From: a virus
Lineage: Duplodnaviria; Caudoviricetes
DNA length: 64,000 bases
Strand: one strand, 5' to 3'
Virus record (IMG/VR): IMGVR_UViG_3300021256_000079
Location: 30,755 to 94,754 of that record
Shown: positions 2,128-24,928 of the stretch, one piece after another
How positions within the stretch are numbered: position 1 is the stretch's first letter
How the letters are laid out: every line of letters starts with the position of its first letter
The notes under the pieces: generated by a model
What the model was told of the DNA's origin: nothing
The model's input: the letters and a program-made list of their open reading frames with translations, nothing else
Databases searched by the model: none
Translations under genes and position numbers: made by a program

Positions 2128-2178
2128 AAGGGAGCTTGAACAAGGCTCCTTATATTTTTATCGAAAGGGGTTTTAACA

Positions 2179-2415
2179 ATGTTTAAAAAGTACAAACTGG
2201 AAGGCTGGATTGACTATCCTGGAGTCGGCAAGATTACGGACGAAGATGTTTATCGGACAGTAAAGAAGCATTCAAGACTTGTAGATAGACTCAATCCTCG
2301 CAAAATGCTGGAGATGTCTTTTTATGCGCAAGCCATTCTTATGAAAGCTGCTGAACCAGACGATGTGAACAATCCGAACTGGAAGTTTTATGGAAAGAAG
2401 CATAAAAGGAGGTGA
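2179..2415 (+). CDS. Hypothetical protein
   Basis: ORF with RBS. Confidence 0.7.
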   Translation: MFKKYKLEGWIDYPGVGKITDEDVYRTVKKHSRLVDRLNPRKMLEMSFYAQAILMKAAEPDDVNNPNWKFYGKKHKRR

Positions 2416-2798
2416 AATTAATGTCGCGTGTTGATATTAACTATTTGTTGGATCAGGTAAAGTATAGATTTAAGCTTGCTTATCATGACGCTTATGAAAA
2501 AGGCAAGAAAGCGGCTGAGTACGTACGTGACAATCCAAGAGAAGCAGCGATGATTATTGCCGCTGGCAGTACGTTTCTTGGAATCGCACATAAGATTTCA
2601 AAAGATATTTCCAGAAAGAATCTTTTAAGAAAGGAAAGAGAACTGAAGGAACTGTACGTGTACGACTATAGCAGTCATATGTATATTCGACTGAAGCATA
2701 AGCTTAGTGTTGAAGATCTCGAAAATGTTGAAAGACTTCGTAGAAAGGGTTATAGCAAAACGGAAGCACTTCTTAAACTTAATCTTGTAAAGAAATGA
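2412..2798 (+). CDS. Hypothetical protein with central hydrophobic helix
   Basis: Overlapping start/stop coupling, RBS. Confidence 0.75.
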   Translation: MKLMSRVDINYLLDQVKYRFKLAYHDAYEKGKKAAEYVRDNPREAAMIIAAGSTFLGIAHKISKDISRKNLLRKERELKELYVYDYSSHMYIRLKHKLSVEDLENVERLRRKGYSKTEALLKLNLVKK

Positions 2799-2813
2799 AA
2801 GGAGTTCTAACTC

Positions 2814-3089
2814 ATGACTAATTGGGACAAAATAAGCAAAGCTCTCAGCGGATTGCTTAAGGATATTACGCCAGATGTATTTGCGGAATCTCTCGCAAGC
2901 GATTGCGCGACTTGCACGTATTGTGCGTTAAATGAAAGATGTAATTCAGTATTCTATGTTTATGATGAAAATGGTGAATGCGTAGTAGATAATGATGGTG
3001 ACCCAATTGTAAATGACGATTTCCCAGGATGTGAAAAGATCATTCTGGGATATTTAAATGAAGAAACAGGTGAAGATGATGCACGCTAA
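2814..3089 (+). CDS. Cys-rich hypothetical protein
   Basis: CATCTYC motif; RBS. Confidence 0.7.
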   Translation: MTNWDKISKALSGLLKDITPDVFAESLASDCATCTYCALNERCNSVFYVYDENGECVVDNDGDPIVNDDFPGCEKIILGYLNEETGEDDAR

Positions 3090-3438
3090 TCTGCATCTTA
3101 TAACAGAAATGGAACTTATACCTGTAATGATCGATGCTATCATGGAACCTTTTTATGAAGGTAACTTTTTAATGTATGACAAAGAAAAAGACGAGTATAA
3201 GTATCCGGATGTCATGCCACAATTCAGATGGGACTACTATACTGTTCATCCGAAGATATTCTATCCTAAAATTGAAGACTGTTTCATCATTATTGATCCA
3301 GAAGGAAGAGCAATTGCCAGAAGATGGTGGAACGGTAAAAAATGGATCGACCAAAACAAGCATTTTGAAAGATTCATAAAGAAAAATAAGCGTAAATGGA
3401 AAGGATGCTACATGCTAGAAATAGATGTGCATTGGTGA
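3076..3438 (+). CDS. Hypothetical protein
   Basis: ORF coupled to neighbours; start approximate. Confidence 0.7.
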   Translation: MMHANLHLITEMELIPVMIDAIMEPFYEGNFLMYDKEKDEYKYPDVMPQFRWDYYTVHPKIFYPKIEDCFIIIDPEGRAIARRWWNGKKWIDQNKHFERFIKKNKRKWKGCYMLEIDVHW

Positions 3439-3446
3439 TTAATACG

Positions 3447-3758
3447 ATGAAAGCTAAAGAATATTTCGAAAAGTATGCTGAATCAGTTTGGGAAGACTAT
3501 CAGCAGGACGAATTTCGTGGCGACGGTCCAATCGCCAAAATGTTTATTGAATTTATGACGGAAACCAAAGATATTTGCGAAAAAAGAAAAGCCAAAACTG
3601 ATCGAGCGGTACTAAGTGTCGTTGATGAACAGAATAAGAAGTGGAACGCTTTGGCAAATCTGTTCATTAAGAAATACGGTCAATCTCCTATTAAGCGTGA
3701 CGGATATTTAAATGGAGCTGAAAGCGAACTTGGAGTCTCGCTGAAGAAAAGAACATAA
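3447..3758 (+). CDS. Hypothetical protein, paralog of 14529-14912
   Basis: AKEYFxxY...KKWxxLxNxF shared. Confidence 0.7.
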   Translation: MKAKEYFEKYAESVWEDYQQDEFRGDGPIAKMFIEFMTETKDICEKRKAKTDRAVLSVVDEQNKKWNALANLFIKKYGQSPIKRDGYLNGAESELGVSLKKRT

Positions 3759-3837: not shown

Positions 3838-4653
3838 ATGAGTCTCAAGGTCAAGGGAAAAACGTTGCTTATTCTGGTGACAGGTGCTGGTATTGTAGTC
3901 ACAGCTTATCTTGCCGCTAAGAAAGCACCGGAAGCTCAAAAGAGAAAGGAGGAAGCACTTAAAGCAAAAAGAGAAGCCACTGGAGATGAGAACGCTCAGC
4001 TTACAACTACCGAGTCTATAAAGGCACAAATTGGTAGTTATGCGCCAGCAATTATTAGTGGTGTCGTAGCTTTTAGCAGTTTTATTGGAACCGAAATTAT
4101 TGACGAGCATGATATTCATAAGATTAAGCAGTCGGTAACGAACGATTTCAATAAACTTAAGAATTCACTAGATGACTACAAAACAATGACCGATAAGTTG
4201 AACGGCAATGGCTCTTCCAAGATAATTGAAAGAGCTATTGAACAAGACAATAAGACGTTTACAACAAGACAGTGGTACCGAATTGTATTTGAGGGTGAAA
4301 AACTTGAATTCCAGTCTACGCCAGAAGAGGTGATTAAAGCTTTTTATGAGGCGAATCGACAGTTTCAGGGTACAGGAATTCTGACATTTAATGAGTTTAT
4401 TGATTTTCTCGATCAGCAGCTATTGACAGATGAAGCTCAGCAAAAGGGTGAAGAACTCTGTTGGGAGGCTTTTGTATGTGACAACATCTTTGGCTACACG
4501 TGGCTAGACTTTGATATTCAGCCTTGTGAAGATAGACCCGACATGAAAGAGATCATCTTTCCTGTGATGCCTCGTTATATTGATGAGGAAGATCGATACC
4601 ATAAGATTAACGAAGCCTGTGCTAAAAAGATTACGGATGGTGATATTGAATGA
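3838..4653 (+). CDS. DUF6353-like phage protein (paralog family with 12047 and 16484)
   Basis: N-terminal hydrophobic GxxxTA helix, second hydrophobic helix, similar C-terminal domain; family name from memory. Confidence 0.65.
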   Translation: MSLKVKGKTLLILVTGAGIVVTAYLAAKKAPEAQKRKEEALKAKREATGDENAQLTTTESIKAQIGSYAPAIISGVVAFSSFIGTEIIDEHDIHKIKQSVTNDFNKLKNSLDDYKTMTDKLNGNGSSKIIERAIEQDNKTFTTRQWYRIVFEGEKLEFQSTPEEVIKAFYEANRQFQGTGILTFNEFIDFLDQQLLTDEAQQKGEELCWEAFVCDNIFGYTWLDFDIQPCEDRPDMKEIIFPVMPRYIDEEDRYHKINEACAKKITDGDIE

Positions 4654-4982
4654 CGCCTAAAACGTATGTACTCGAGGTTTCGGACGAAATCAATAGTGTT
4701 CCAAGTAGGATTAAGAGTATACAAAAACTGTTCAACGATGAGAATACGATCGTTACTCTTAACCTTATAAGAGAGGTGTTCGGATTGAGGCCGCTTAGAT
4801 CAGAGTATGAAATGTGCTTTGGTCCGAACACAGAAGAACCGCTGGATATTAGTGTATCTTACAGCTTTAATACTAGGATGCATGCTGAAAACAATTGTTA
4901 TACAATCAAGATTTCGAACGTCATCGATTTAAGATATTTTTATGAATGTTGTGAGGAGAGCGATTACTATGGAGACGATTAA
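4650..4982 (+). CDS. Hypothetical protein
   Basis: ATGA overlap with upstream gene. Confidence 0.7.
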   Translation: MTPKTYVLEVSDEINSVPSRIKSIQKLFNDENTIVTLNLIREVFGLRPLRSEYEMCFGPNTEEPLDISVSYSFNTRMHAENNCYTIKISNVIDLRYFYECCEESDYYGDD

Positions 4983-5292
4983 AATTAGTGATACAGATCT
5001 TAGGGAATATGCCAACGAAATTATGTCGAGCGATGAGTATCTCGCTCAGAGAGAAAAATACCATATGCACAACCCAAAGCACTATGTAAATGAATCGACG
5101 CATAGAGCAATCATGATGAGTTCTATTGATATTGCGAAAAAAACTATCGGCAGTAACGGTACTATTGAAGAGATCAAAAGAGCATGTGTCTATATGAGAA
5201 TCTGTATTGACGCAAGACAGTATCGACTGAACTATACGGCGGCAAAGAAAGAACTCAAAATTGATGAGCTTGTTCAGAAGTATTGTAAATAA
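4969..5292 (+). CDS. Protein resembling the post-catalytic helical segment of the phage RNAP
   Basis: EEIKRA..IDA..L..IDELVQKY aligns ungapped with RNAP EEIARA..IDA..L..IAELKTKY. Confidence 0.7.
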   Translation: METIKISDTDLREYANEIMSSDEYLAQREKYHMHNPKHYVNESTHRAIMMSSIDIAKKTIGSNGTIEEIKRACVYMRICIDARQYRLNYTAAKKELKIDELVQKYCK

Positions 5293-5295
5293 TAC

Positions 5296-5322
5296 TCGCG
5301 TAAGAAACACACGTATAGATGA
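5296..5322 (+). promoter_or_regulatory. Promoter-like motif, copy 7 (heads the unit containing the pentamer array and Cas7-like gene)
   Basis: TCGCGTAAGAAACACACGTATAGATGA followed by a hairpin. Confidence 0.75.
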
Positions 5323-5374
5323 GAGGACTAAGGAAACTTAGTCCTCTTTATTTTTATCGAAAGGATGAAAAACT

Positions 5375-5908
5375 ATGAAAAAAGCTATTGTTCGCGGAAA
5401 CTACGATGAAGCCCCTATGCTCCAGATGGGTTATGTTACTGATTACATGTGGAAATCGGTAGCATACTTTAGAGCGCCAGAAAAAAGTGGAAGATATTTG
5501 GTTATTAAAAAAGACGGAACACTCGACGAATATGAGTGCACCGGAACAAAATGCGATGACAAATCGCTGTTTGAAATGGCCGCTGAAATGAGTGATGAAT
5601 ATTGCTCAGCCGTTTTTGTCAATGAACACCCCGCAAGCGATACAGAAATTCTTGACACTTACAGAAGTCCATGGTCTAGATGGTATAAAGTCGAGGAGTG
5701 GTACGAATACGAAGACTGCCACACTGATCTGCATATGTTTACAGAAGAATCTGATCAGTATCCATTATATTTTCTTGACCTTAATCTTGATGAAAAATTC
5801 CAAATCGAAGAAAACGGTGAAATTCACACAGGTGAGGATCCCGTTTACTTTAGACTTAATACGAATCTTGAATACGAGCAAATCGACGACGAAGATAAAA
5901 ACGAGTGA
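5375..5908 (+). CDS. Acidic hypothetical protein
   Basis: ORF with RBS. Confidence 0.75.
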   Translation: MKKAIVRGNYDEAPMLQMGYVTDYMWKSVAYFRAPEKSGRYLVIKKDGTLDEYECTGTKCDDKSLFEMAAEMSDEYCSAVFVNEHPASDTEILDTYRSPWSRWYKVEEWYEYEDCHTDLHMFTEESDQYPLYFLDLNLDEKFQIEENGEIHTGEDPVYFRLNTNLEYEQIDDEDKNE

Positions 5909-5915
5909 ATAAAAT

Positions 5916-6576
5916 GTTATGGCAAAGTGTAGATCTGAGGGGCGTAGGAAGAGAAAAGCAACGTGATGGCATGGAACGGCAGGGAAAAGAATTGCAAAGC
6001 GAGGGAATAGCGCTGCACTGAATCGCGTGGGAACAGAGTAGTTACGAGTAGCAAAGGATTAGCGATGCGACGATTACCAAAGAGATGCATTGGCATAGAA
6101 CGGCACGGAAACGAATGGCAAAGGACTTGCATAGAAGAGCAAAGGAGAGGCGTGGCGACAAAATGGAGACGAAATGCAACGGAACAGGACCGCTAAGAAA
6201 TGAGGAGCGTTGGAAATGAACGGTATGGAGCAGAAAAGAACTGCATAGGAATAGAACAGCTACGAATTGAGGAGTGTTGGCATAGCTCAGAGATGCAATG
6301 GAAATGAACTGCCAAGAAACGGTACGCAGTGGTAGAGCTTAGATACGAGAAGCATTGGCAAAGAACGGATGCTCATCGAGATGCAAAGGAAAAGAATGGC
6401 CTTGAATTGAACTGCCAAGAACACAAAAGCAATGGAATTGCAATGAAACGTCCTGAAAGGGAGAAGAAAAGCAAGGATAGCCGCGAACTGTACGCATTGG
6501 CAAAGAATGGAGGCTCATCGAGATGCTAAGGAAAAGCCTTGCATTGAACTGCCAAGAACAGAAAGGCGACGGCGAT
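5916..6576 (+). ncRNA. Pentamer-periodic G[AC][AG]NN array; putative guide-RNA array for the adjacent Cas7-like protein
   Basis: Parses almost entirely into G-initiated 5-mers with a single extra G every ~3-9 units; no credible ORF. Confidence 0.75.
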
Positions 6577-6589
6577 TGCTTGAAAGGAG

Positions 6590-6874
6590 GTGATCAAAAT
6601 GATAATTGAAAGCTTTCCTGGCGATGCCAAACCGTACAAGTGTAATGACTGTGACACAATCTTTTTATGGAGGGAGGATATTGCAGATCATCCAAAAGGA
6701 AGATGTAACAGGTTTAGTACTAAGTACGAATGCTATACAAACGACGAAACATGCTTATTTTACAGCAAATGTAGTGGACCGATATGCCCAGTATGTAAAT
6801 CCAAATACGTTGTAAACGTAAACTCTTTTTACTACAGAATAACAAGATATTTCAGAAATCGAAAGGAGAAATAA
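6590..6874 (+). CDS. Zn-ribbon protein, paralog of 10489-10752
   Basis: CNDC and CPVC motifs; shared C-terminus RIxxYFR. Confidence 0.75.
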   Translation: MIKMIIESFPGDAKPYKCNDCDTIFLWREDIADHPKGRCNRFSTKYECYTNDETCLFYSKCSGPICPVCKSKYVVNVNSFYYRITRYFRNRKEK

Positions 6875-6876
6875 TT

Positions 6877-7488
6877 ATGATCACTTTGACTGTTAAGGTT
6901 ACTTTTACTGAGGAAGTCCTTGGAACTGCTTCTGCTAACAAAGATATTCATGCTGAATACATCGCTAGCAAGGCTCCTGATGCTGCTTCCATTAAGGAAG
7001 AAGTGGAAGCCGTTGGCGCTGAAGAAGTGTTTGAAAAGTCTATGACCGTTTTTCCGCGAGGAAAAGATGGCGGACCGATTGCCTGGGATTACCAGTGGAA
7101 GGGTTTTCTTAAGGACGCCTTTAAGTCCCTTAAGAAGATTCCTGGATCTGAATGCGGTAAGATTAAGGCCTATAAACAGGAGATTGATGGCCTTATATTC
7201 GTGAACCCGCGTCAGATCCCGATCGTTCTCCCTGAAGGCGGAAAGATTGGTATCTGCCAGAGACCTCTCAGAGCCAGCACTGCTCAGGGTGAAAGGATTG
7301 CTTTGGCCTCTTCTGAAACAGTTCCTGTCGGATCTACTATGACGTTTGATATTCAGCTGCTTCTTGACACACACGAAAAAGCTGTAATCGAGGCTTTCAA
7401 TTACGGAAAGCTTCGTGGTTTTGGTCAGTGGCGAAACTCCGGTGCCGGACGTTTCAACTATGAAATCCTTAACAGAAAGGTGGATTAA
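6877..7488 (+). CDS. Solitary Cas7/RAMP-like protein
   Basis: N-terminal strand with VTFTEEVLG, helix WKGFLKDA, C-terminal Gly-rich loop GFGQWRNSGAGRF typical of RAMP/Cas7 (Csm3/Csf2-like) folds. Confidence 0.75.
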   Translation: MITLTVKVTFTEEVLGTASANKDIHAEYIASKAPDAASIKEEVEAVGAEEVFEKSMTVFPRGKDGGPIAWDYQWKGFLKDAFKSLKKIPGSECGKIKAYKQEIDGLIFVNPRQIPIVLPEGGKIGICQRPLRASTAQGERIALASSETVPVGSTMTFDIQLLLDTHEKAVIEAFNYGKLRGFGQWRNSGAGRFNYEILNRKVD

Positions 7489-7490
7489 TC

Positions 7491-8285
7491 ATGAATACGA
7501 TGCTTGCTTTTATGATGGGTGATCGTTTTCGTGGTAATGAATTGATGGTTTTTGACTGGAATAAGGCTGCAAAACTTATTAAAGAAAACTATCTGGACGA
7601 AGTGGTATTTGCCGGTCTTTCTGGAGATATGGAATATACCTCTGGCTGTATATTCAGAGATGGTCATCCTGTTCTTGACGATTACACATACCTTTCATCA
7701 ACTTGGGCAACTCCGGTTCTTGCAGTTGGAGACGAAGAAATTCCATGCTATATCATGCAACATGAAACCGAGTGGGATGATAGCACTAAATGGCCACAAT
7801 CCGCTCTTGATATTCTTGGCGTAAAGAAAACCGAACCCGATCCAAGAATTTACAACGATAATTCACAAGGTCGTGCAATTCTTGAAGACGATGCTTATAA
7901 TGGGTATCATTATAGAATTGTATCTACTCGCGGCGATCATCCTTGCTGCTACATCGAAATTACAGAAGGACATCCTTGGTATCGTAAACCTTATCAGCGT
8001 CTTGAGTGGGATTGGGAATGGGACGATGAAGGAAAAGAGATAGAGAAACCTCCAATTGGAGGCAAAACTATCAACGTTCATGGCGGAATTACTTACAGCG
8101 ATAACATGGACGTTGAAGGAGAATGGTGGATCGGATGGGATTACGCTCATGGCGGAGATTATTGTCATCATTATATGAAACATTCGCCTGACGATCATGT
8201 ATGGACAATGGATGAACTTCGAAAAGAAGTGCATGATGCAATTGACCAGCTTAATGATATTTTCAAGGAGGACGACGAAAGGTGA
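7491..8285 (+). CDS. Two-domain hypothetical protein
   Basis: N-domain FDWNKAA..WATP; C-domain HPCCY..VHGGITY..WIGWDYAH. Confidence 0.75.
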   Translation: MNTMLAFMMGDRFRGNELMVFDWNKAAKLIKENYLDEVVFAGLSGDMEYTSGCIFRDGHPVLDDYTYLSSTWATPVLAVGDEEIPCYIMQHETEWDDSTKWPQSALDILGVKKTEPDPRIYNDNSQGRAILEDDAYNGYHYRIVSTRGDHPCCYIEITEGHPWYRKPYQRLEWDWEWDDEGKEIEKPPIGGKTINVHGGITYSDNMDVEGEWWIGWDYAHGGDYCHHYMKHSPDDHVWTMDELRKEVHDAIDQLNDIFKEDDER

Positions 8286-8551
8286 AGAAAAAACTCTTGG
8301 CTGGAATTGTATGCCTTGTGATGCTGTTAGTTCTTTTGACTGGTTGCAGCTCGAACACTAAGAGTACGGACGCTAGTAAGGAATGGAAGAAAATAGGTTA
8401 CATTCTGTTTCCGGACGAAACGGTTGTAATCGAATTCGGAAAGATAAGTAGAATCAGTTCTGGTTGGATTAATGTATGGACTGCTGATGGAAAAACGTGT
8501 TACTCAACAAATGAAAGAAACGTTATTCTTGTAAACGAACAAATCGACTAA
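8282..8551 (+). CDS. Putative lipoprotein
   Basis: KKK, hydrophobic stretch, then lipobox LLTGC. Confidence 0.75.
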   Translation: MKKKLLAGIVCLVMLLVLLTGCSSNTKSTDASKEWKKIGYILFPDETVVIEFGKISRISSGWINVWTADGKTCYSTNERNVILVNEQID

Positions 8552-8611
8552 TTCAAAAGAGGCTGTCTCAATCGAGGCAGCCTTTTTATTTTTTCTGGAA
8601 GGAGAAATTAA

Positions 8612-8857
8612 ATGTGGAGGAGTGGGAACATTGGCCTAAATGGAATTTGGTACGTCTTTGAAATTCTTGTCAGCGAGCATCCAAGTAAGCTTGGGATATT
8701 TGGAGGAAAGATAGAAGAACTCCATCTATACGACGGAAACGACAATCTTGTAGCTGAGTTTAATAAGAAGTGGATCGTATCGCCTAAAAAAGGATCCGAT
8801 TCCTATAAAGCTGTTAACAAGATATTAAAAGAATTTAATTTCGGAAAGGAAAAATGA
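8612..8857 (+). CDS. Hypothetical protein, related to 12969-13247
   Basis: SxxGIxGxxIxxLxx motif shared. Confidence 0.7.
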   Translation: MWRSGNIGLNGIWYVFEILVSEHPSKLGIFGGKIEELHLYDGNDNLVAEFNKKWIVSPKKGSDSYKAVNKILKEFNFGKEK

Positions 8858-8859
8858 CT

Positions 8860-8979
8860 ATGAAGTACCAAATCAGAATTGATAATGGCCACTATAATCT
8901 GTATGTGAACGGACAATTTTATGGTAGTTACGACACATATTCCGAGGCCGAGAAAGACCTCGATGAACTTCGCACATAA
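8860..8979 (+). CDS. 39-aa hypothetical protein
   Basis: Read manually: MKYQIRIDNGHYNLYVNGQFYGSYDTYSEAEKDLDELRT. Confidence 0.55.
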   Translation: MKYQIRIDNGHYNLYVNGQFYGSYDTYSEAEKDLDELRT

Positions 8980-8996
8980 AACATTCTTAATAATGA
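8970..8996 (+). promoter_or_regulatory. Promoter-like motif, copy 8
   Basis: TCGCACATAAAACATTCTTAATAATGA. Confidence 0.75.
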
Positions 8997-9021
8997 GGAA
9001 AGACCTTGAAAGGAGTACTGA

Positions 9022-9471
9022 ATGATTAAGGAATTATTTAGAAACGAAACAGGTGAAACAAAAGTAAAGGTTAAGAAAATTAGAATTACGGCGAAGGAGA
9101 TTAAAACTCACATCAACTGGCTTGATGAACAAATTCAAAAATGCCAAAAAGAAAGAGAAAGATACAGAGAATTACGGAAGCAAATGCTTGAACTGGATCC
9201 GGATGATGAATCGTACTCAGCTCTAGAAAGAGAAGCGGAAGCATACGCAGATGCCGATGAACGGTATTCGAAGCTTCAAGAGCAAAGAGAAAAGGAGTTT
9301 ACGATTCTTAAGAAATACAAAGATTCCAAGTTCTATGTAGCTCCGAAAGATTTAATGGTTATCTTCGGAGTTGGCTGCTTGAGTTTCTTCATGATTGCAC
9401 TTGAGAGAGAAAATCCTAAGGCGTTGAAGTTGGCGAGCTTTGTGCTGAAGCTGTTTCCGATTAAAATGTGA
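9022..9471 (+). CDS. Coiled-coil protein with C-terminal hydrophobic segment
   Basis: ORF with RBS, enclosed by a 14-bp inverted repeat. Confidence 0.75.
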   Translation: MIKELFRNETGETKVKVKKIRITAKEIKTHINWLDEQIQKCQKERERYRELRKQMLELDPDDESYSALEREAEAYADADERYSKLQEQREKEFTILKKYKDSKFYVAPKDLMVIFGVGCLSFFMIALERENPKALKLASFVLKLFPIKM

Positions 9472-9566
9472 AGAAGATATTCATTTTGGAATAAGAAAAA
9501 GGTCTTTCCTCAGAATCAAGAGAGAACAAAAAGTTCTCTCTTTATTTTTTCTAGGAGGTATGCATC

Positions 9567-9785
9567 ATGCCGAGTAAAAAGGGTATTGAACAAGCTCTAA
9601 CGTGGCTTCGAAGTAAGTCACACGATCGAGACACCTTAGATGGAATCAATGCTGAACTTTGTATTAATGTAATTATGGATTTGCAAAGACAGTATGACAG
9701 ACTTGGTGCTCAATTTAGCAATCTGGCAAAAACAAAAAGACAGAATAACGATCCAAATAGTCCAGATCAGATTAGTTTTTTATAA
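9567..9785 (+). CDS. Hypothetical protein with C-terminal QISF clamp-binding-like motif
   Basis: AGGAGG RBS; ends DQISFL. Confidence 0.65.
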   Translation: MPSKKGIEQALTWLRSKSHDRDTLDGINAELCINVIMDLQRQYDRLGAQFSNLAKTKRQNNDPNSPDQISFL

Positions 9786-9809
9786 GAAACGAAAGGAGTT
9801 GCGGATATT

Positions 9810-9992
9810 TTGAATTGGAAGAATCTTGCTAAAAAGTTAGCTCTCGCGATTACGGCTATTGCATGCCTTGGGGCTTTAAACAAGATCATGACAAAGGAAG
9901 ATATTCTCTATAAGGGCTATGATCCTACCAAAACACGAGTTGATAGACATGGAAATGTAATCATTGGTACGGACGACTACACAATCACTTAA
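9810..9992 (+). CDS. Small membrane protein
   Basis: RBS, hydrophobic N-terminus. Confidence 0.6.
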   Translation: MNWKNLAKKLALAITAIACLGALNKIMTKEDILYKGYDPTKTRVDRHGNVIIGTDDYTIT

Positions 9993-9997
9993 GACAC

Positions 9998-10024
9998 TCG
10001 CACCATGAACATGCTCTATAATGA
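9998..10024 (+). promoter_or_regulatory. Promoter-like motif, copy 9
   Basis: TCGCACCATGAACATGCTCTATAATGA. Confidence 0.8.
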
Positions 10025-10101
10025 AAGGAGATGATTAAATTGGGAGTATAAACCCGACGGAGGGCTGTGAGCTTCGGCAAGATCAGTTTTTAAAACTAGC
10101 C

Positions 10102-10173
10102 GTCATAATAGCTCAAAGGTAGAGCGCCTGTAAAGACGAAACAGGAGACCCGGGTTCGAAGCCCGGAAAATGA
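10102..10173 (+). ncRNA. tRNA-like RNA / tRNA pseudogene
   Basis: D arm TAGCTCAAAGGTAGAGC, stem CCTGT/ACAGG with 9-nt loop, T arm CCGGG-TTCGAAG-CCCGG; broken acceptor stem. Confidence 0.65.
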
Positions 10174-10211
10174 AGATCATTCCCTTATATTTTTCGTAAA
10201 GGAGTGCAAAC

Positions 10212-10505
10212 ATGCGTAGACCAACTAGAACTCAAATACTTATGTCTAATCTTTACATATGGGTTAGACGGTACGGATGCGTAGATATTAGTCCTGGAAT
10301 GGAAAAGTATCTGTGTGTATCAAGAAGGGTTCTTCTAAGTGCTGCTAAAAGCTTATGCAAGGATCCTGCTGATTTGAATAAAGTAATGATATTACGAATT
10401 GATGGCATTACCGTCCTGGTTACGGACGATTTTTCACTCAGTGACTTTGATTTAAGACTAATCCCAAAAGATCTTGAGGGGTACACAGATGGCAATAATA
10501 GTTAA
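10212..10505 (+). CDS. Protein resembling an N-terminal subdomain of the phage RNAP
   Basis: LMSNL..V....VDISPGMEKYLCVS...L..A aligns with RNAP LMKVL..V....VDVGGGSELRLNVS...L..A. Confidence 0.65.
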   Translation: MRRPTRTQILMSNLYIWVRRYGCVDISPGMEKYLCVSRRVLLSAAKSLCKDPADLNKVMILRIDGITVLVTDDFSLSDFDLRLIPKDLEGYTDGNNS

Positions 10506-10752
10506 AGGATATTTGAAATGCAAAATATGCGGAACATTCTTTACTCCAGCAATAACCGAGCTGCCTTGTTACTTTACAGAGAATGAAGTAGAAGACGGGG
10601 TAGAAGTCGGCGTTCCGTCGGAAAAGTGTGCAGAATGCAAACATTTTTTGAGCTGGAGATGCAGCTCACCCAGATGCCCAGCATGCGGATCTAATAACGT
10701 TAAAAAAGTATCTGGTATTGCAGTTAGAATTTCTAACTATTTTAGAAAGTGA
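10489..10752 (+). CDS. Zn-ribbon protein, paralog of 6590-6874
   Basis: CKIC, CAEC, CPAC motifs. Confidence 0.75.
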   Translation: MAIIVKGYLKCKICGTFFTPAITELPCYFTENEVEDGVEVGVPSEKCAECKHFLSWRCSSPRCPACGSNNVKKVSGIAVRISNYFRK

Positions 10753-10762
10753 GGAATCTATT

Positions 10763-11071
10763 ATGGACCGTTATGCTAGAGTTTCTTTTGGAAGAGACGA
10801 AAAAGAAAAGCAACGAGACTTTCTTCTCGCCATGAATGGTGCTGAAATCATTCAAGTCTCAGAAGAAGATATTGATAGATGGTATGAAGAAGATGTGAAA
10901 ATGAATACCGGATGCAATAACTGCATTGTTTTGCATAATGACGAAGAAGTAAACCGTTTTATTTATGTAATGCGCACCTTCTTCAATGGCGTTCCGTATA
11001 AAATCACAAGTGATCCCGATAATGAAGTGTTCAAAGAATGCATTGAAAAGAGTAAAAAGGAGCTGTCATGA
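10763..11071 (+). CDS. Hypothetical protein
   Basis: ORF with RBS. Confidence 0.7.
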   Translation: MDRYARVSFGRDEKEKQRDFLLAMNGAEIIQVSEEDIDRWYEEDVKMNTGCNNCIVLHNDEEVNRFIYVMRTFFNGVPYKITSDPDNEVFKECIEKSKKELS

Positions 11072-19617: not shown

Positions 19618-19884
19618 ATGTATGACTCGCCCGTAAACAGTATTGAAACAATTTATAATGAGATCAAACAGAAGGCTGACAGCGATCTTAAAGACGCCAT
19701 GTTTACTGTTCTTGGCAAACGAAGCATTGATATTGATGAAGAGAAACTCGTCCAGGCAATCACAGCAGATAGAAAAAGGTATGAAGAAGCTTACAGACGT
19801 GGCTATGAAGCTGGACGGAGAGATGAATACAACAAATTTGCTACGATTTGCTCTAGGGCTATGGATGATATGTGTGGGTTTTAA
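19618..19884 (+). CDS. Hypothetical protein
   Basis: RBS; YEEAYRRGYEAG motif. Confidence 0.7.
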   Translation: MYDSPVNSIETIYNEIKQKADSDLKDAMFTVLGKRSIDIDEEKLVQAITADRKRYEEAYRRGYEAGRRDEYNKFATICSRAMDDMCGF

Positions 19885-19885
19885 T

Positions 19886-19972
19886 AGAGTTCTGGAAGAG
19901 TTCTGGAAGAGTACTTGAATGGTTCTGGAAGAGTTCTGGAAGAGTTCTGGAAGAGTTCTGGAAGAGTACGGA
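19886..19972. repeat. 11-bp tandem repeat (AGAGTTCTGGA), ~7.5 copies
   Basis: Read directly; two variant internal units. Confidence 0.9.
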
Positions 19973-20012
19973 CGTGGATTTATATTTTTCGAAAATGAAA
20001 GGAATAACAATT

Positions 20013-20192
20013 ATGGAAAATTCAGAAGCAAAACGAACAGTAAATGCTGTTAAGACTATTGATGAATTTATTCAAAATCACCTGTATGAACTTCATCCAA
20101 AAACCGTAGACAGATGGTTTGATGTGAAGATGGAAATAAGTAAAGTTATCGAAAAATCTACTGGAAAAAGCGTTTATGGCCAATGGGATTAA
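20013..20192 (+). CDS. Small hypothetical protein
   Basis: ATG after AAGGAA; upstream extension in the ORF track is the repeat. Confidence 0.6.
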   Translation: MENSEAKRTVNAVKTIDEFIQNHLYELHPKTVDRWFDVKMEISKVIEKSTGKSVYGQWD

Positions 20193-20197
20193 AACAA

Positions 20198-20480
20198 AAA
20201 ATCCCGTCGTTTTTGCCCGTCGTTTTTGAAAATTTTTCAGCATCATATTTTTGTTGTGTGAAAAATCGTCAAAAAATGGCAAAAAATGGCAAATCCCGTC
20301 AAAAAAGTGACGGGCAGCTTCAAAAGTGACGGGCAGTCAAACCCTTGGCCCCCAACGGTTTGCGGGAAAATCCCGTCGTTTTTGAAATTTTTATTAAGTT
20401 AATCTCCAGAAAAAAATTATTTATAGAATTAATATGGACTTTTTTCAAAAATGACGGGCAACGATATTTTTTACAAAAAA
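20198..20480. other. Putative replication origin
   Basis: Direct and inverted CCCGTC/TGACGGG repeats with A/T tracts in non-coding DNA immediately upstream of the replicase. Confidence 0.65.
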
Positions 20481-20512: not shown

Positions 20513-23500
20513 ATGCAGTGTGACTTTTTTAGAGTAACAACAGCATATGTTAAGAATGGAGTTGAGTCAGTTATTCCTGAATTCCTTGTTAAAACTAAGA
20601 TCAACGATCTTATGATTCGAGGTGGAAAATTCTATGCCATTCTTAATAAAAGAACAAACATGTGGGAAACGAATGAAGGAGTTGTTCAAAAGTTTGTTGA
20701 TGAAGAGATTGAAGCTCTTTATCAGAAACTAACAGCTAATCCCGGTCAAAAGTTTTATATTCGTAAAGACATGGAGAGTTTCGGAAGTGGAAGTTGGAGT
20801 ACTTATAAGAATTATGCTGCCAGTCTTCCTGACAATTGGCATCAGCTCGATAATAAGATCTGTTTTAGCGACACTCAGGTCACTCCTAAAGATTATATTT
20901 CTAAGAGACTTCCTTATGCTCTCGGTGATAGCGGATACGAAAGTTGGGATGAACTTGTTGGTACTTTATATTCTCCAGAAGAAAGAGAAAAGATAGAATG
21001 GGCCATTGGATCCATTGTCTCTGGAGATAGTAAAGATATTCAAAAATTTATAGTTCTCTATGGTGATCCTGGTGCCGGTAAAGGAACGATTATTGAAATT
21101 ATTAAAAAGTTGTTTCCTGGATATTATGAGGTGTTCGATGCAAAGAGTCTTAGCAGCAATAGCAATGCATTCGCATTCGAGCAATTTCGTACGAACCCTT
21201 TGATCGCCTTGCAGAGTGATGGCGATTTAAGTCGAATCGAGGACAACACAAAAATTAATAGTCTGGTTAGCCATGAAACTATAGTGATGAATGAAAAAAG
21301 GAAGCAGAGTTATAATTTCACACCTAGATGTTTTCTATTCATGGCCTCAAATAAACCTGTAAAGATTACTGATGCCAAAAGTGGAATCATTCGAAGACTT
21401 ATTGATGTTCATCCTACTGGCAACACACTTCCTAAAGCTAAGTATGATAGCTTAATGGGTAAAGTCCAATTTGAACTTGGTGGAATTGCAAAACACTGCC
21501 TTGATGTTTATCAAAAGCTTGGAAAAAACTATTACAACGGCTATCGGCCATTAAGTATGATGTTCCAGACAGATGCGTTCTTTAACTTCATGAAAGATCG
21601 TTATGACTTTTTTAAGATTGAACATGCTGACGGAATTTGTTTGTCTGAAGCTTACATCGAATGGCAAAATTATTGCAACGAAACTGGCCTTGATATTCGT
21701 CTTCCTAGATACAAATTTAGAGAAGAATTGAAAAACTATTTTGAGCACTTTGATGATCGCGTGTCAGTGAACAATGAAGATCATAGAAGTTGGTTTAGCG
21801 GTTTTAAGGTCGATCGGTTTCTCGGAAGTAGAGGTGGACGAAAAGATATTCCTGTAAAGGGTAAAACTCTTGGTCTAGTCCTCGATCAAAAGGTTTCACT
21901 TCTCGATGAGATGTTGAAAGACTGTCAAGCACAGTATGGAGAAGAAAAACCTGAGGGCGGAAGTAAGCCAAGAATCTCTTGGGATGAATGTCAGACAACT
22001 CTTAAGAATATTGATACTTCTAAACTTCACTTTGTTCGTCTTCCTAAAGATCATATTGTTATTGACTTTGATCTTAAGAATGAAAAAGGTGAAAAAGACG
22101 CTTTACTTAATCTCGAAGCTGCCGATAAGTGGCCAAAAACCTATGCTGAATACAGCCAAGGTGGAAAAGGCGTGCACTTGCATTATATTTATGCTGGTGA
22201 TCCTGAAGAACTCAAGGCTCTTTATGCAGATGGCATTGAGATTAAAATCTCAAAAGGTAAAAGTAGTCTTAGAAGAAGGCTCAGTCTGTGTAATAACATC
22301 CCAGTTGCAACTATTAGTTCTGGTCTTCCTAAGAAAGAGGTGGTTGACAATTTGCTTGACTTCGAAGCTGTTAAGGACGAACAGCATTTGAGAAACATTG
22401 TCAGTAAATGTCTTCGAAAAGATATTCAGCAGCCTTACACAACAACGGCTATGAATCTTATTAAGAAGACTCTTGAAGACGCATATAACAGCGGTCTCAA
22501 GTATGATATTACTGACATGCGTCCTGCCATTAAAGGTTTCGCTTGTAAGAGCACTCATCAGAAAGAAACCTGTATGAAAATTGCCGAAGAATTGCATTAT
22601 AAAGGAAAAGTCTTTGAAACCCTCATGGAAGGCTCTATAATGGCCTCTAAGCCGCCTGAAGAGGTAGAGACGACTAAATCTACGCCCCCTGAGAAAAATC
22701 GCTCAGAGGGCCTTTTAAATGCAAAAGAAGTGCATCCTGACATCATTTATATTCCAAATGAACCTTCTAGCGAAGAACTTCCTGTATTCTTTGATATTGA
22801 AGTCTTTCCTAACCTGCTTCTTGTGAACTGGAAAGAGGCTGGCGAAGGTAAAGGCGTTGTGAGAATGATAAATCCCACAATGCAGGAAGTTAGAGCTTTG
22901 TTTAAGAAGAAGCTTATAGGCTTTAACTGTAGAAGGTATGACAACCATGTACTTTATGCAAGAGCCATTGGCTATGATATTCCGTCTCTCTATAAGCTTA
23001 GTCAGAAAATCATCGCTGGAAGTAAGAATGCCATGATGGGTCAGGCCTATGATATTTCCTATACCGATGTCTATGACTTTGCAGCTAAGAAGCAAAGTCT
23101 TAAGAAGTGGGAAATTGAACTAGGCATTCACCATCAGGAACTTGGACTTCCTTGGGATCAGCCAGTTCCAGAAGAAAGATGGCCAGAAGTTGCTGCATAT
23201 TGCGACAATGACGTTATTGCAACTGAAGCTGTATTCAATCATTTGGCTGGTGACTTTAAAGCAAGAGAGATTCTGGCAGACATTGCTGGCATGACAGTCA
23301 ATGACACAACCAATAGCCTTACAACCAAAATTATATTTGGCGATGATCCCGCTCCTCAAAGACAGTTTGTCTATCCTGATCTTAAGAAAAAATTCCCAGG
23401 TTATATATTTGAGAATGGAAAGAGCTATCTTAATGGAGTTGAGATTGGCGAAGGTGGAAGAGTATATGCCGTTCCTGGAATTCATCATCATGTAACAACT

Positions 23501-24928
23501 TATGACGTTGCCAGTATGCATCCTTCTTCTATTATTGCCGAAAATGGCTTTGGCAAGTATACAGAACGCTTCAAACAGCTACTTGATATTCGTATTGCTA
23601 TTAAGCATAAGGACTTCGAGAAAGCCAAAACAATGCTGGATGGTAAACTTGCCAAATACTTAACCGATAAGAATCAAGCAAAGGCTCTTAGCCAGGCACT
23701 TAAGATTGCTATCAATAGTGTTTATGGTTTAACTGCTGCTGGATTCGATAACAAATTTAGAGATCCTCGCAATGTGGATAATTGGGTTGCTAAGAGAGGC
23801 GCTCTCTTTATTGAGACACTTAGGGTTAATGTAATTAAGCTTGGAGGCAAAGTTGTTCACATTAAGACAGACTCTATCAAGGTTGAAGATCCAACTCCTG
23901 AGATCACGAATTATATTCTGGACTTCGGTAAACAGTGGGGTTACACATTTGAAGTTGAGGACATCTACGAAAAGATGTGTCTCGTGAATGATGCTGTTTA
24001 TGTTGCTCTTAGAGATAGGGAAGATCCGAGTTGGAAAGATGAATGCGAAAAGGCCAAAAAGAAAGCCGAAGAAACTAATTCAGTTTATCAAGAACCTACA
24101 AGGTGGACAGCCACTGGTGCTCAGTTCCAACATCCTTATGTCTTTAAGCATCTCTTTAGCGGTGAGGAAGTCACTTTCAGAGATCTGTGTGAAACCAAGA
24201 CCGTTACAAGCGCTTTATATTTGGACATGAACGAAAATCTTAGTGATGTAACAGAGTATGAGAAGAATCTAGACAAACTTGTAAAGAGAGCAAAGACACT
24301 TCTTAAAACCGAAGGATATTTTGGTTCATGGGAAGAATGGCCTGAGTGGAGAAAACAGAATCCTGATGCTCAAGATTCGCATGGCGGGGTTATTTATGGT
24401 GAACTTGACGATCTTGTTAAAGATCAAGAAGTTCTCAAAGAGCTTATTGCAAAAGGACACAATTATATTTTCGTTGGTAAAGCTGGATGCTTCTGTCCTG
24501 TACTTAAAGGAACAGGTGGTGGCATCCTTGTAAGAGAAAAAGATGGTAAATTCAATGCTGCAACTGGTAGTAAAGGATTCAGATGGCGTGAAAGTGAAAG
24601 TATTTCTGGTGCTGACAGAATGAACATAATCGACATGGGCTACTTTGAGAATCTTGCTCGGGTTGCAAAAGAGGCTATTGAGACATATGGGGACTTTGAT
24701 GCATTCGTAACAGAATCATCTGAAGTCCCCAATTATATTTCAATAGACGAAGAAGCAGAGAAAGCCGCTAAGAAGTATGGAGAACCCGGTGTTCCTTCAT
24801 GGCTGCCACCTTGTGGTGATGGCAAGTATGCTAATTGCTATGATTGTCCTCACTTTGATATTGAGAAAATTCCCCCTGAATGTAGAAAAGGTTATGACCT
24901 GACAGAACACTTCACAATTAATGTTTGA
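20513..24928 (+). CDS. Fused SF3 helicase / primase (prim-pol) / family B-like DNA polymerase
   Basis: Walker A GDPGAGKGT; VIDFD and HLHY primase motifs; exonuclease FDIEVF; polymerase DVASMHPS, KIAINSVYG, KTDS. Confidence 0.88.
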   Translation: MQCDFFRVTTAYVKNGVESVIPEFLVKTKINDLMIRGGKFYAILNKRTNMWETNEGVVQKFVDEEIEALYQKLTANPGQKFYIRKDMESFGSGSWSTYKNYAASLPDNWHQLDNKICFSDTQVTPKDYISKRLPYALGDSGYESWDELVGTLYSPEEREKIEWAIGSIVSGDSKDIQKFIVLYGDPGAGKGTIIEIIKKLFPGYYEVFDAKSLSSNSNAFAFEQFRTNPLIALQSDGDLSRIEDNTKINSLVSHETIVMNEKRKQSYNFTPRCFLFMASNKPVKITDAKSGIIRRLIDVHPTGNTLPKAKYDSLMGKVQFELGGIAKHCLDVYQKLGKNYYNGYRPLSMMFQTDAFFNFMKDRYDFFKIEHADGICLSEAYIEWQNYCNETGLDIRLPRYKFREELKNYFEHFDDRVSVNNEDHRSWFSGFKVDRFLGSRGGRKDIPVKGKTLGLVLDQKVSLLDEMLKDCQAQYGEEKPEGGSKPRISWDECQTTLKNIDTSKLHFVRLPKDHIVIDFDLKNEKGEKDALLNLEAADKWPKTYAEYSQGGKGVHLHYIYAGDPEELKALYADGIEIKISKGKSSLRRRLSLCNNIPVATISSGLPKKEVVDNLLDFEAVKDEQHLRNIVSKCLRKDIQQPYTTTAMNLIKKTLEDAYNSGLKYDITDMRPAIKGFACKSTHQKETCMKIAEELHYKGKVFETLMEGSIMASKPPEEVETTKSTPPEKNRSEGLLNAKEVHPDIIYIPNEPSSEELPVFFDIEVFPNLLLVNWKEAGEGKGVVRMINPTMQEVRALFKKKLIGFNCRRYDNHVLYARAIGYDIPSLYKLSQKIIAGSKNAMMGQAYDISYTDVYDFAAKKQSLKKWEIELGIHHQELGLPWDQPVPEERWPEVAAYCDNDVIATEAVFNHLAGDFKAREILADIAGMTVNDTTNSLTTKIIFGDDPAPQRQFVYPDLKKKFPGYIFENGKSYLNGVEIGEGGRVYAVPGIHHHVTTYDVASMHPSSIIAENGFGKYTERFKQLLDIRIAIKHKDFEKAKTMLDGKLAKYLTDKNQAKALSQALKIAINSVYGLTAAGFDNKFRDPRNVDNWVAKRGALFIETLRVNVIKLGGKVVHIKTDSIKVEDPTPEITNYILDFGKQWGYTFEVEDIYEKMCLVNDAVYVALRDREDPSWKDECEKAKKKAEETNSVYQEPTRWTATGAQFQHPYVFKHLFSGEEVTFRDLCETKTVTSALYLDMNENLSDVTEYEKNLDKLVKRAKTLLKTEGYFGSWEEWPEWRKQNPDAQDSHGGVIYGELDDLVKDQEVLKELIAKGHNYIFVGKAGCFCPVLKGTGGGILVREKDGKFNAATGSKGFRWRESESISGADRMNIIDMGYFENLARVAKEAIETYGDFDAFVTESSEVPNYISIDEEAEKAAKKYGEPGVPSWLPPCGDGKYANCYDCPHFDIEKIPPECRKGYDLTEHFTINV

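Follow-up and report, generated by a model that had tools for sequence, protein, structure and literature searches.

The DNA analysed here (the window: 64,000 nucleotides (nt), positions 30,755 to 94,754 of IMG/VR virus record IMGVR_UViG_3300021256_000079) makes up the 3′ two-thirds of a 94,754-bp phage genome that CheckV rates as complete. The genome encodes a terminase, a portal, a head protease, a fused primase-polymerase and an RNA polymerase of the YonO/crAss type, and the runs containing the phage are animal gut metagenomes. One co-oriented block of genes in the window, lying between two terminator-like hairpins, carries a non-coding tract built from G-initiated units of about five nucleotides and, on the same strand, a gene for a 203-amino-acid (aa) RAMP protein (Table 1). 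We regard it as probable that this locus is a viral RNA-guided system of the VIPR type in a 94.8-kb phage of rumen/gut Clostridia, a finding that is a description at the level of sequence.

VIPR (Viral Interference Programmable Repeat) combines a phage-borne, ancestral RAMP protein of ~20 kDa, Vipr, with vrRNAs (bioRxiv 10.64898/2026.04.26.720920,.720927, 10.64898/2026.10.15.759431). Each vrRNA comprises 9–16 YNNGG repeats and a structured tail; one protomer takes up each repeat, with GGY sequestered, NN reading double-stranded DNA and one base skipped, and the outcome is the silencing of satellites and rival prophages (bioRxiv 10.64898/2026.04.26.720920,.720927). An earlier note made from the letters of the window alone (the original prediction) had proposed a pentamer-coded array beside a solitary Cas7/RAMP-like protein and had likened the pair to VIPR; such systems do exist, with the mechanism that it described (bioRxiv 10.64898/2026.04.26.720920,.720927).

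Array grammar and the RAMP protein

The tract contains no open reading frame (ORF) longer than 71 aa on either strand, as the original prediction had held. At lag 5 its same-base identity reaches 0.417, compared with 0.286 ± 0.017 in 500 dinucleotide shuffles (z 7.6, the period-5 peak that had been expected), and the power of G at a period of ~5.2 is 40.9, against 3.66 ± 1.3 in shuffles (z 28.6). The autocorrelation peaks fall at lags 5, 10/11, 15/16, 21, 26, 31 and 36, giving a mean period of 5.2, not 5.0. A dynamic-programming parse of 5916–6580 (an earlier parse spanned 5909–6598) divides the tract into 128 units, close to the ~120 G-initiated 5-mers first counted: 104 pentamers, 22 hexamers, 21 of which begin with GG, and 2 tetramers. 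G occupies the first position in 96% of the units. The second is A in 44% and C in 39%, which agrees with the predicted A/C preference (83% together); the third is A in 54% and G in 22%, so the purine preference proposed for it holds in the window but is not reliable across the family. Positions 4 and 5 are A/T-biased and otherwise free. At each GG hexamer the register moves on by +1, roughly once in 5–7 units, which sets off ~22 modules, mostly of 5–7 units (26–36 nt), and it is these discrete steps by an extra G that raise the mean period to 5.2. Steps spaced by 5–6 units yield modules of 26 or 31 nt.

The tract is 69% purine, and the fold energy of its RNA is no better than that of shuffles (z +1.0). 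It is continuous, with no conserved non-repeat element interspersed in the window array, and at its 3′ end it passes without a gap into the ribosome-binding site of the gene that follows, leaving no tail element. Tandem Repeats Finder does not pick up the array.

The 203-aa ORF, with its glycine-rich loop (G-loop; GFGQWRNSGAGRF, residues 181–193), is as originally described. An AlphaFold2 model built from a 62-sequence alignment has a predicted local distance difference test score (pLDDT) of 89, and the top 50 Foldseek matches of this model are all Csm3 or type VII Cas7 (E ~2e-7), which bears out the fold proposed from the letters. Furthermore, the family profile matches the G-loop of type VII Cas7 in the PDB at E 1.9e-5 and that of Csm4 at E 0.002, and a long β-hairpin at ~125–149 of the model may be interpreted as the thumb. 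The predicted structure is thus that of a Cas7-type RAMP protein. Modelled as a homotrimer, the protein assembles head to tail with an ipSAE of 0.60 (best control 0.00); the runs share at least 50% of their contacts, with a partner pLDDT of at least 74. In the predicted interface, residues 70–75, 101–112 and 162–163 contact helix 83–88 and G-loop residues 179–189 of the next copy. Of 30 proteins solved as pairs, 20 come up to the mark that the trimer passes, as does 1 of 23 solved as single chains; the pass may stem from the likeness of the model to solved Cas7 filaments.

The gene stands alone, as had been claimed. The whole genome holds no Cas1 and one RAMP gene only (Cas2, 5, 6, 8 and 10 were not searched individually), no CRISPR-like array was found in it (no 20-mer occurring at least three times at 45–95 nt spacing), and the other operon proteins have no cas matches in family-library scans.

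A comparison with Vipr itself used the Escherichia phage SUSP1, whose vipr gene we located through the YNNGG runs that flank it (KT454805, 28474–29061, minus strand; YP_009199429). Aligned by hhalign, the profile of the window family (62 sequences) and that of the SUSP1 Vipr family (37) match end to end over 184 columns, at a probability of 76% and E 2.3e-5. In the cryo-EM structure of SUSP1 Vipr, H17 and D177 read the first G, and R138, W178 and R179 hold the second G and the pyrimidine. W178/R179 correspond here to W185, which is invariant, and R186, whereas T17 and Q184 take the places of H17 and D177, a replacement that would fit a family fixing one G only. Both proteins carry a common C-terminal motif (GVGDWRPRFGRF in SUSP1, GFGQWRNSGAGRF here).

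Gene-array linkage and conservation among relatives

At E ≤ 1e-3 in a 90% database, the 203-aa protein has 5,728 relatives, forming 1,669 clusters at 50% identity. Loci were fetched for 80 relatives from IMG/VR, 80 from genomes or metagenome-assembled genomes (MAGs) and 9 close relatives; the profile search of genome contigs used a 14-sequence alignment. The MAG bins concerned belong chiefly to Oscillospiraceae, Ruminococcaceae, Lachnospiraceae and further Clostridia, and some to Coriobacteriia and Bacteroidales.

A period-5 array with a G phase lies within 700 nt of the gene in 147 of the 160 loci, from viral contigs and gut/rumen MAGs, that carry the gene motif, which answers the co-occurrence check proposed at the outset; several of the 13 array-less loci are truncated contigs. 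The array is downstream of the gene in 94 of the 147, upstream in 48 and on both sides in 5, and the G phase is on the strand of the gene in 178 of 178 arrays detected (170 loci scanned). The median array is 425 nt long and the longest 1,560 nt. Twenty fully parsed family arrays share a common grammar with that of the window: G occupies the first position in more than 90% of units in all but one (83%), the second is mostly C/A (T/C in one array), and 13–19% of units in the family arrays are hexamers, most of them beginning GG. Across the family, the modal module is 5–6 units, and G-C-A-A-N is favoured in the unit preceding the extra G. No accessory gene is conserved alongside: pseudo-ORFs inside arrays aside, each neighbour family occurs in at most 29 of the 160 loci, and the commonest real neighbours (SSB, antirepressor and DUF1351) each in less than 20% of loci.

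In one IMG/VR relative, the 73-kb contig L011, arrays flank the Vipr-like gene on both sides (1–320, 2161–3720 and 4651–5690, more than 2.9 kb in total) and the second unit position is T/C, not A/C, suggesting that this position co-varies with the protein lineage. On the 86-kb MAG contig JAGCAN010000001.1 (Oscillospiraceae, yak duodenum), two copies of the Vipr-like gene (L134 and L131) lie 48 kb apart.

Substitutions among related arrays largely spare the G. Across four near-identical phages, 0 of 284 unit Gs and 0 of 49 extra Gs are substituted, against 3–4% of sites at positions 2–4 and 8.5% at position 5. Over all related arrays, 3.8% of sites are polymorphic at G and at the extra G alike, and 12.0, 11.8, 8.9 and 15.6% at positions 2 to 5. 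The original prediction had divided each unit into three constant bases (G, A/C, purine) and two variable ones; this split does not survive, because positions 2–5 all vary in relatives and G alone is protected. Insertions and deletions either keep the phase (5 or 10 nt) or take out a single complete module (26 nt at 6030), and related arrays are mosaics of conserved and replaced blocks. A 12-unit module recurs in 15 viral contigs (L180–L194) between flanks that vary. Eight of its units are identical in all 15 (GCTGT GAGGT GAGGA GCTAG GGCTA GGTAT GCACA GCACC; for example L181, 1910–1948), and its five variable sites all fall at position 2 or 5 of units 10–12. Twelve of the 15 contigs come from one metagenome (3300045988).

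The operon and its surroundings

The 5321–5348 hairpin and the motif directly behind it likely form the 5′ boundary of the operon. The original prediction had placed a promoter motif at 5296, which we could not confirm: a σ70 scan finds none on the plus strand there. The terminator that it saw at ~8557 agrees with the hairpin that ends the operon. It had also placed the RAMP gene ~300 nt downstream of the array; this interval is occupied by a 91-aa ORF, which among relatives occurs in the closest ones only and may be an accessory (vap-like) gene. The 264-aa protein probably lies outside the system, since close relatives have other genes in its place.

Table 1. Features of the array-bearing operon and its boundaries (window coordinates)
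Feature	Position	Strand	Description
Terminator-like hairpin	5321–5348	+	Closes the upstream unit
Recurring motif TATTTTTATCGAAAGGA	5351	+	Directly after hairpin 5321–5348; precedes several genes of the phage
First operon gene, 177 aa	5375–5908	+	No known family; position kept in close relatives
Candidate vrRNA array	5916–6580	+	~128 G-initiated units, non-coding, 665 nt
Cysteine-rich ORF, 91 aa	6599–6874	+	Weak zinc-ribbon matches; ends 2 nt short of the RAMP start codon
Vipr-like RAMP protein, 203 aa	6877–7488	+	Single RRM core, putative thumb, G-loop
264-aa protein (phrog_2164)	7491–8285	+	No assigned function; swapped for other genes in close relatives
89-aa protein	8282–8551	+	Lipoprotein-like signal peptide; last operon gene
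Intrinsic-terminator-like hairpin	8556–8587	+	14 pairs, then a T run; operon end

Several features outside the array are recorded here in their own right. A motif, TAT(A)TTTT(A)TCGAAAGG, stands just 5′ of genes at 2155, 5351, 19596 and 19985, two of the copies directly after a terminator-like hairpin. It may serve as a phage-specific promoter, perhaps one used by the phage's own RNA polymerase, or as a translation-start signal, and its copy at 5351 stands at the head of the array-bearing operon. Upstream of that operon, a 116-aa ORF (4942–5292) weakly matches (E 9e-4) the C-terminal third of phrog_4291, the RNA-polymerase family to which the full-length 932-aa gene at 28009–30807 belongs, and may be a stand-alone fragment copy of the polymerase gene. 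A non-coding segment at 10103–10174 has an Rfam tRNA match (32.2 bits, gathering score 29), the sole match in an Rfam search of 4500–11000. Further downstream, a 13-nt tandem repeat, GAGTTCTGGAAGA, runs through ~6 copies with one interruption (19886–19965), between two small ORFs and just 5′ of a gene starting at 20014. A second ‘period-5’ signal at 19831–20010 is a harmonic (period 5.2) of this repeat and was rejected as an array. Direct and inverted copies of AAATCCCGTCGTTTTTG / GTGACGGGCAG cluster at 20190–20430, in the 320-nt gap 5′ of the primase-polymerase gene (20513–24928); the cluster resembles iterons or operator sites and is possibly a replication origin.

Interpretation and relation to known systems

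By analogy with SUSP1, we propose that the array would be transcribed with its operon and that copies of the RAMP protein would polymerise head to tail on this RNA, one per pentamer. The invariant G would anchor each protomer, held by the conserved Trp-Arg of the G-loop, and the remaining bases would be presented so as to read double-stranded DNA non-contiguously. The complex might then silence genes of competing phages, satellites or prophages. The extra G divides the array into ~20 modules of 26–36 nt that are gained and lost as blocks, and we infer that each module may be a functional guide, or may correspond to one helical turn.

Several observations weigh against assigning the locus to VIPR. 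The profile comparison with SUSP1 Vipr gives a moderate score only, and a plain hidden Markov model (HMM) search with the family profile finds nothing in the SUSP1 genome, so that the relationship is remote; likewise, the 203-aa protein has no match in Pfam, NCBIfam or PHROG even at E ≤ 1. The GGY/NN (YNNGG) consensus fails, the array consensus being G-[A/C]-N-N-N with GG at hexamers only, as the original prediction had noted in stating that the consensus differs; one G is fixed here. This failure does not exclude the wider VIPR class, because the preprint accepts ‘a related consensus’, NNNNG included. Furthermore, the structured 3′ tail and the 9–16-repeat vrRNAs are absent from the window array, and modules of 5–7 units are shorter than the published 9–16 repeats; if two bases were read per unit, a module would specify just 10–14 nt. 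Variation among relatives beyond the G shows no clean division into fixed and variable bases. Finally, no RNA runs are among those recorded with the locus. In two runs labelled metatranscriptomic, contigs of relatives cross the array; these runs are probably DNA and are uninformative on expression.

The most serious alternative accepts the RNA but denies it guides. The array might be one long scaffold, a 660-nt RNA coated by ~130 protomers into a single filament or condensate, in which the variable bases are unconstrained. Its role would lie outside sequence-specific DNA targeting: it might sequester a host factor, lure host RAMP or type III complexes as a decoy, or regulate the operon. Such a scaffold would account for the lack of tails, promoters or terminators between modules, for the similar rates at which positions 2–5 drift, for variable positions that are A/T-biased, G-poor and not codon-like, and for arrays of up to 1,560 nt. 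The stretch of eight identical units in 15 viral contigs, however, lies between varying flanks, which points to selection on the non-G bases in at least some modules and so favours guides over a mere scaffold. The gain and loss of modules as blocks resembles guide turnover, and the closest characterised relatives are sequence-specific guides. We therefore consider a pure scaffold improbable.

If the modules are guides, their targets might be sought as gapped matches, as the original prediction had suggested. These searches covered eleven read/skip rules, a few modules, and exact or near-exact matches in large collections, and they returned chance levels. In a local 2.4-Mb set (the phage's own genome and ~170 loci, arrays masked), neither the window modules, read under eleven or twelve rules, nor 771 unique modules from all arrays gave an excess over letter-shuffled controls; the sole excess, under step-5 rules, came from unmasked array remnants and was rejected. 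The 9-unit module at 6389, scanned exactly against IMG/VR, had 6 matches when positions 4–5 were read with one base skipped (~10 expected), none of which extends into neighbouring modules or has a homologue in this phage, and 0 matches when positions 2–5 were read with one base skipped. The conserved 12-unit module, in the same collection, had 1 non-extending match for positions 4–5 with skip 1, 0 for positions 3–4 with skip 1, positions 3–5 with skip 0 and positions 3–5 with skip 1, and the arrays themselves only for positions 2–5 with skip 1. JGI metagenomes gave 0 matches and then 1 non-extending match, and five host MAGs gave 0. Allowing up to 3 mismatches in 401 Clostridia genomes, positions 3–4 gave 1 match (2 in the reversed control) and positions 4–5 gave 7 (1 in the reversed control), all of them at 3 mismatches and in sequences that are unalike; the mild excess for positions 4–5 is probably codon bias. 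With so few modules and near-exact matches only, these scans do not argue against targeting.

A further explanation treats the tract as a DNA element, bent or coated with protein, that is simply carried along with the RAMP gene; it might be an origin, a partition site or an array bound by the zinc-ribbon protein. In its favour, the mean period of 5.2 is half of a 10.4-bp helical turn, a zinc-ribbon gene lies directly 3′ of the array, and the family occurs in replication/recombination modules, where its neighbours include SSB, antirepressor and DUF1351. However, that period arises from discrete +1 steps with no smooth helical phase, the sole constant neighbour is the RNA-binding RAMP and not the zinc ribbon, the strand asymmetry is strong (69% purine), and every one of the 178 arrays has its G phase on the RAMP gene's strand, upstream or downstream alike; we hold a DNA element to be very unlikely. 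That the tract is a chance or functionless low-complexity, purine-rich spacer, for which its low complexity and nothing else speaks, is refuted by the shuffles (z 28.6), by zero substitutions at 333 G positions among relatives and by the same grammar beside the same gene in ~150 independent loci.

Reading the locus as an RNA-guided system of the VIPR type would have consequences beyond this phage. VIPR, first described in 2026, has been put forward both as a viral ancestor from which CRISPR effectors arose and as a minimal DNA binder that can be programmed. Phages of gut and rumen Clostridia, of Coriobacteriia and of some Bacteroidales bins appear to carry the class in abundance; the 5,728 protein sequences retrieved here exceed the 2,664 in the published NR catalogue. 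The branch described here relaxes the fixed GGY to a single G, has neither a tail nor a conserved accessory gene, and punctuates its array with register shifts. If the modules are guides, they would bear on the lower limit of VIPR guide length and would represent a different way of delimiting guides, and if more than two bases are read per unit, the coding density of the system would change. Guide length and coding density in turn bear on engineering, and on the evolutionary step of the RAMP period from 5 nt to 6 nt.

Class-level features of VIPR are present at the locus, namely a RAMP fold (here predicted), an adjacent pentamer array with an anchoring base, a minimal viral locus and no cas genes detected. 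VIPR type II (SUSP1 and a Pseudomonas fulva prophage) is alike in being phage-borne, with a single ~200-aa, one-RRM RAMP protein that has a thumb and a G-loop, in the C-terminal motif G-x-G-x-W-R...G-R-F, in the adjacent same-strand pentanucleotide array with an anchoring G and variable bases, and in lacking cas genes and a CRISPR array. It differs in several respects. Type II fixes GGY where one G per unit is fixed here, and has separate vrRNAs of ~100 nt and 9–16 repeats, whereas the array here is one continuous tract of ~128 units; its conserved pseudoknot tail has no counterpart in this array. Unlike type II, the array here shifts register by +1, through an extra G, about every 5–6 units, no vap1 homologue is evident, and the phages that carry it infect gut and rumen Clostridia. 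Identity between the two protein families is ~18–23%.

The first VIPR preprint defines seven types, some with NNNGG, YNNNG or NNNNG repeats, and describes some arrays as ‘staggered’, their vrRNAs lying at ‘1 nt overlapping positions’, and others as interspersed with ribozymes. By this description, the NNNNG types share the G-only anchor with the array here, and by their wording the staggered arrays share a register that steps by one base per module. A language-model preprint lists 99 period-5 clusters, of which 21 are non-GGY (GAC/NN, CAC/NN, WGT/NN, TGH/NN); non-GGY clusters likewise place a Vipr-like fold next to a period-5 array, although the arrays of that preprint have ~10 units and those here 80–300 (bioRxiv 10.64898/2026.10.21.760802). 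The suggestion in the original prediction that this might be a new variant is thus doubtful, as NNNNG repeats and staggered arrays are both described in the first preprint, and the locus is probably already catalogued as a VIPR type with such arrays. Only tentatively, and against the odds as we see them, might the gut/rumen phage family represent a VIPR architecture outside the seven published types, with tail-less arrays of 80–300 units, a single-G anchor, a programmed +1 GG step, one-helical-turn modules (5–7 protomers) and a rule other than read-2-skip-1. The replacement of H17 by T and of D177 by Q in the G-binding pocket, together with the lack of a clean 3+2 conservation split, might in that case allow three or four bases to be read in each unit.

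The Csm3/Cas7 proteins of type III and type VII CRISPR-Cas resemble the 203-aa protein in the G-loop, as seen by sequence profile, and in the predicted head-to-tail oligomer. They differ in that identity is 10–17% and the protein here has no Cas7 match in Pfam or NCBIfam, in that no Cas1, no repeat-spacer array and, with no search aimed at them individually, no Cas5, Cas6 or Cas10 were found in this genome, and in their RNA step, which is 6 nt in Csm3/Cas7 systems and 5 nt here.

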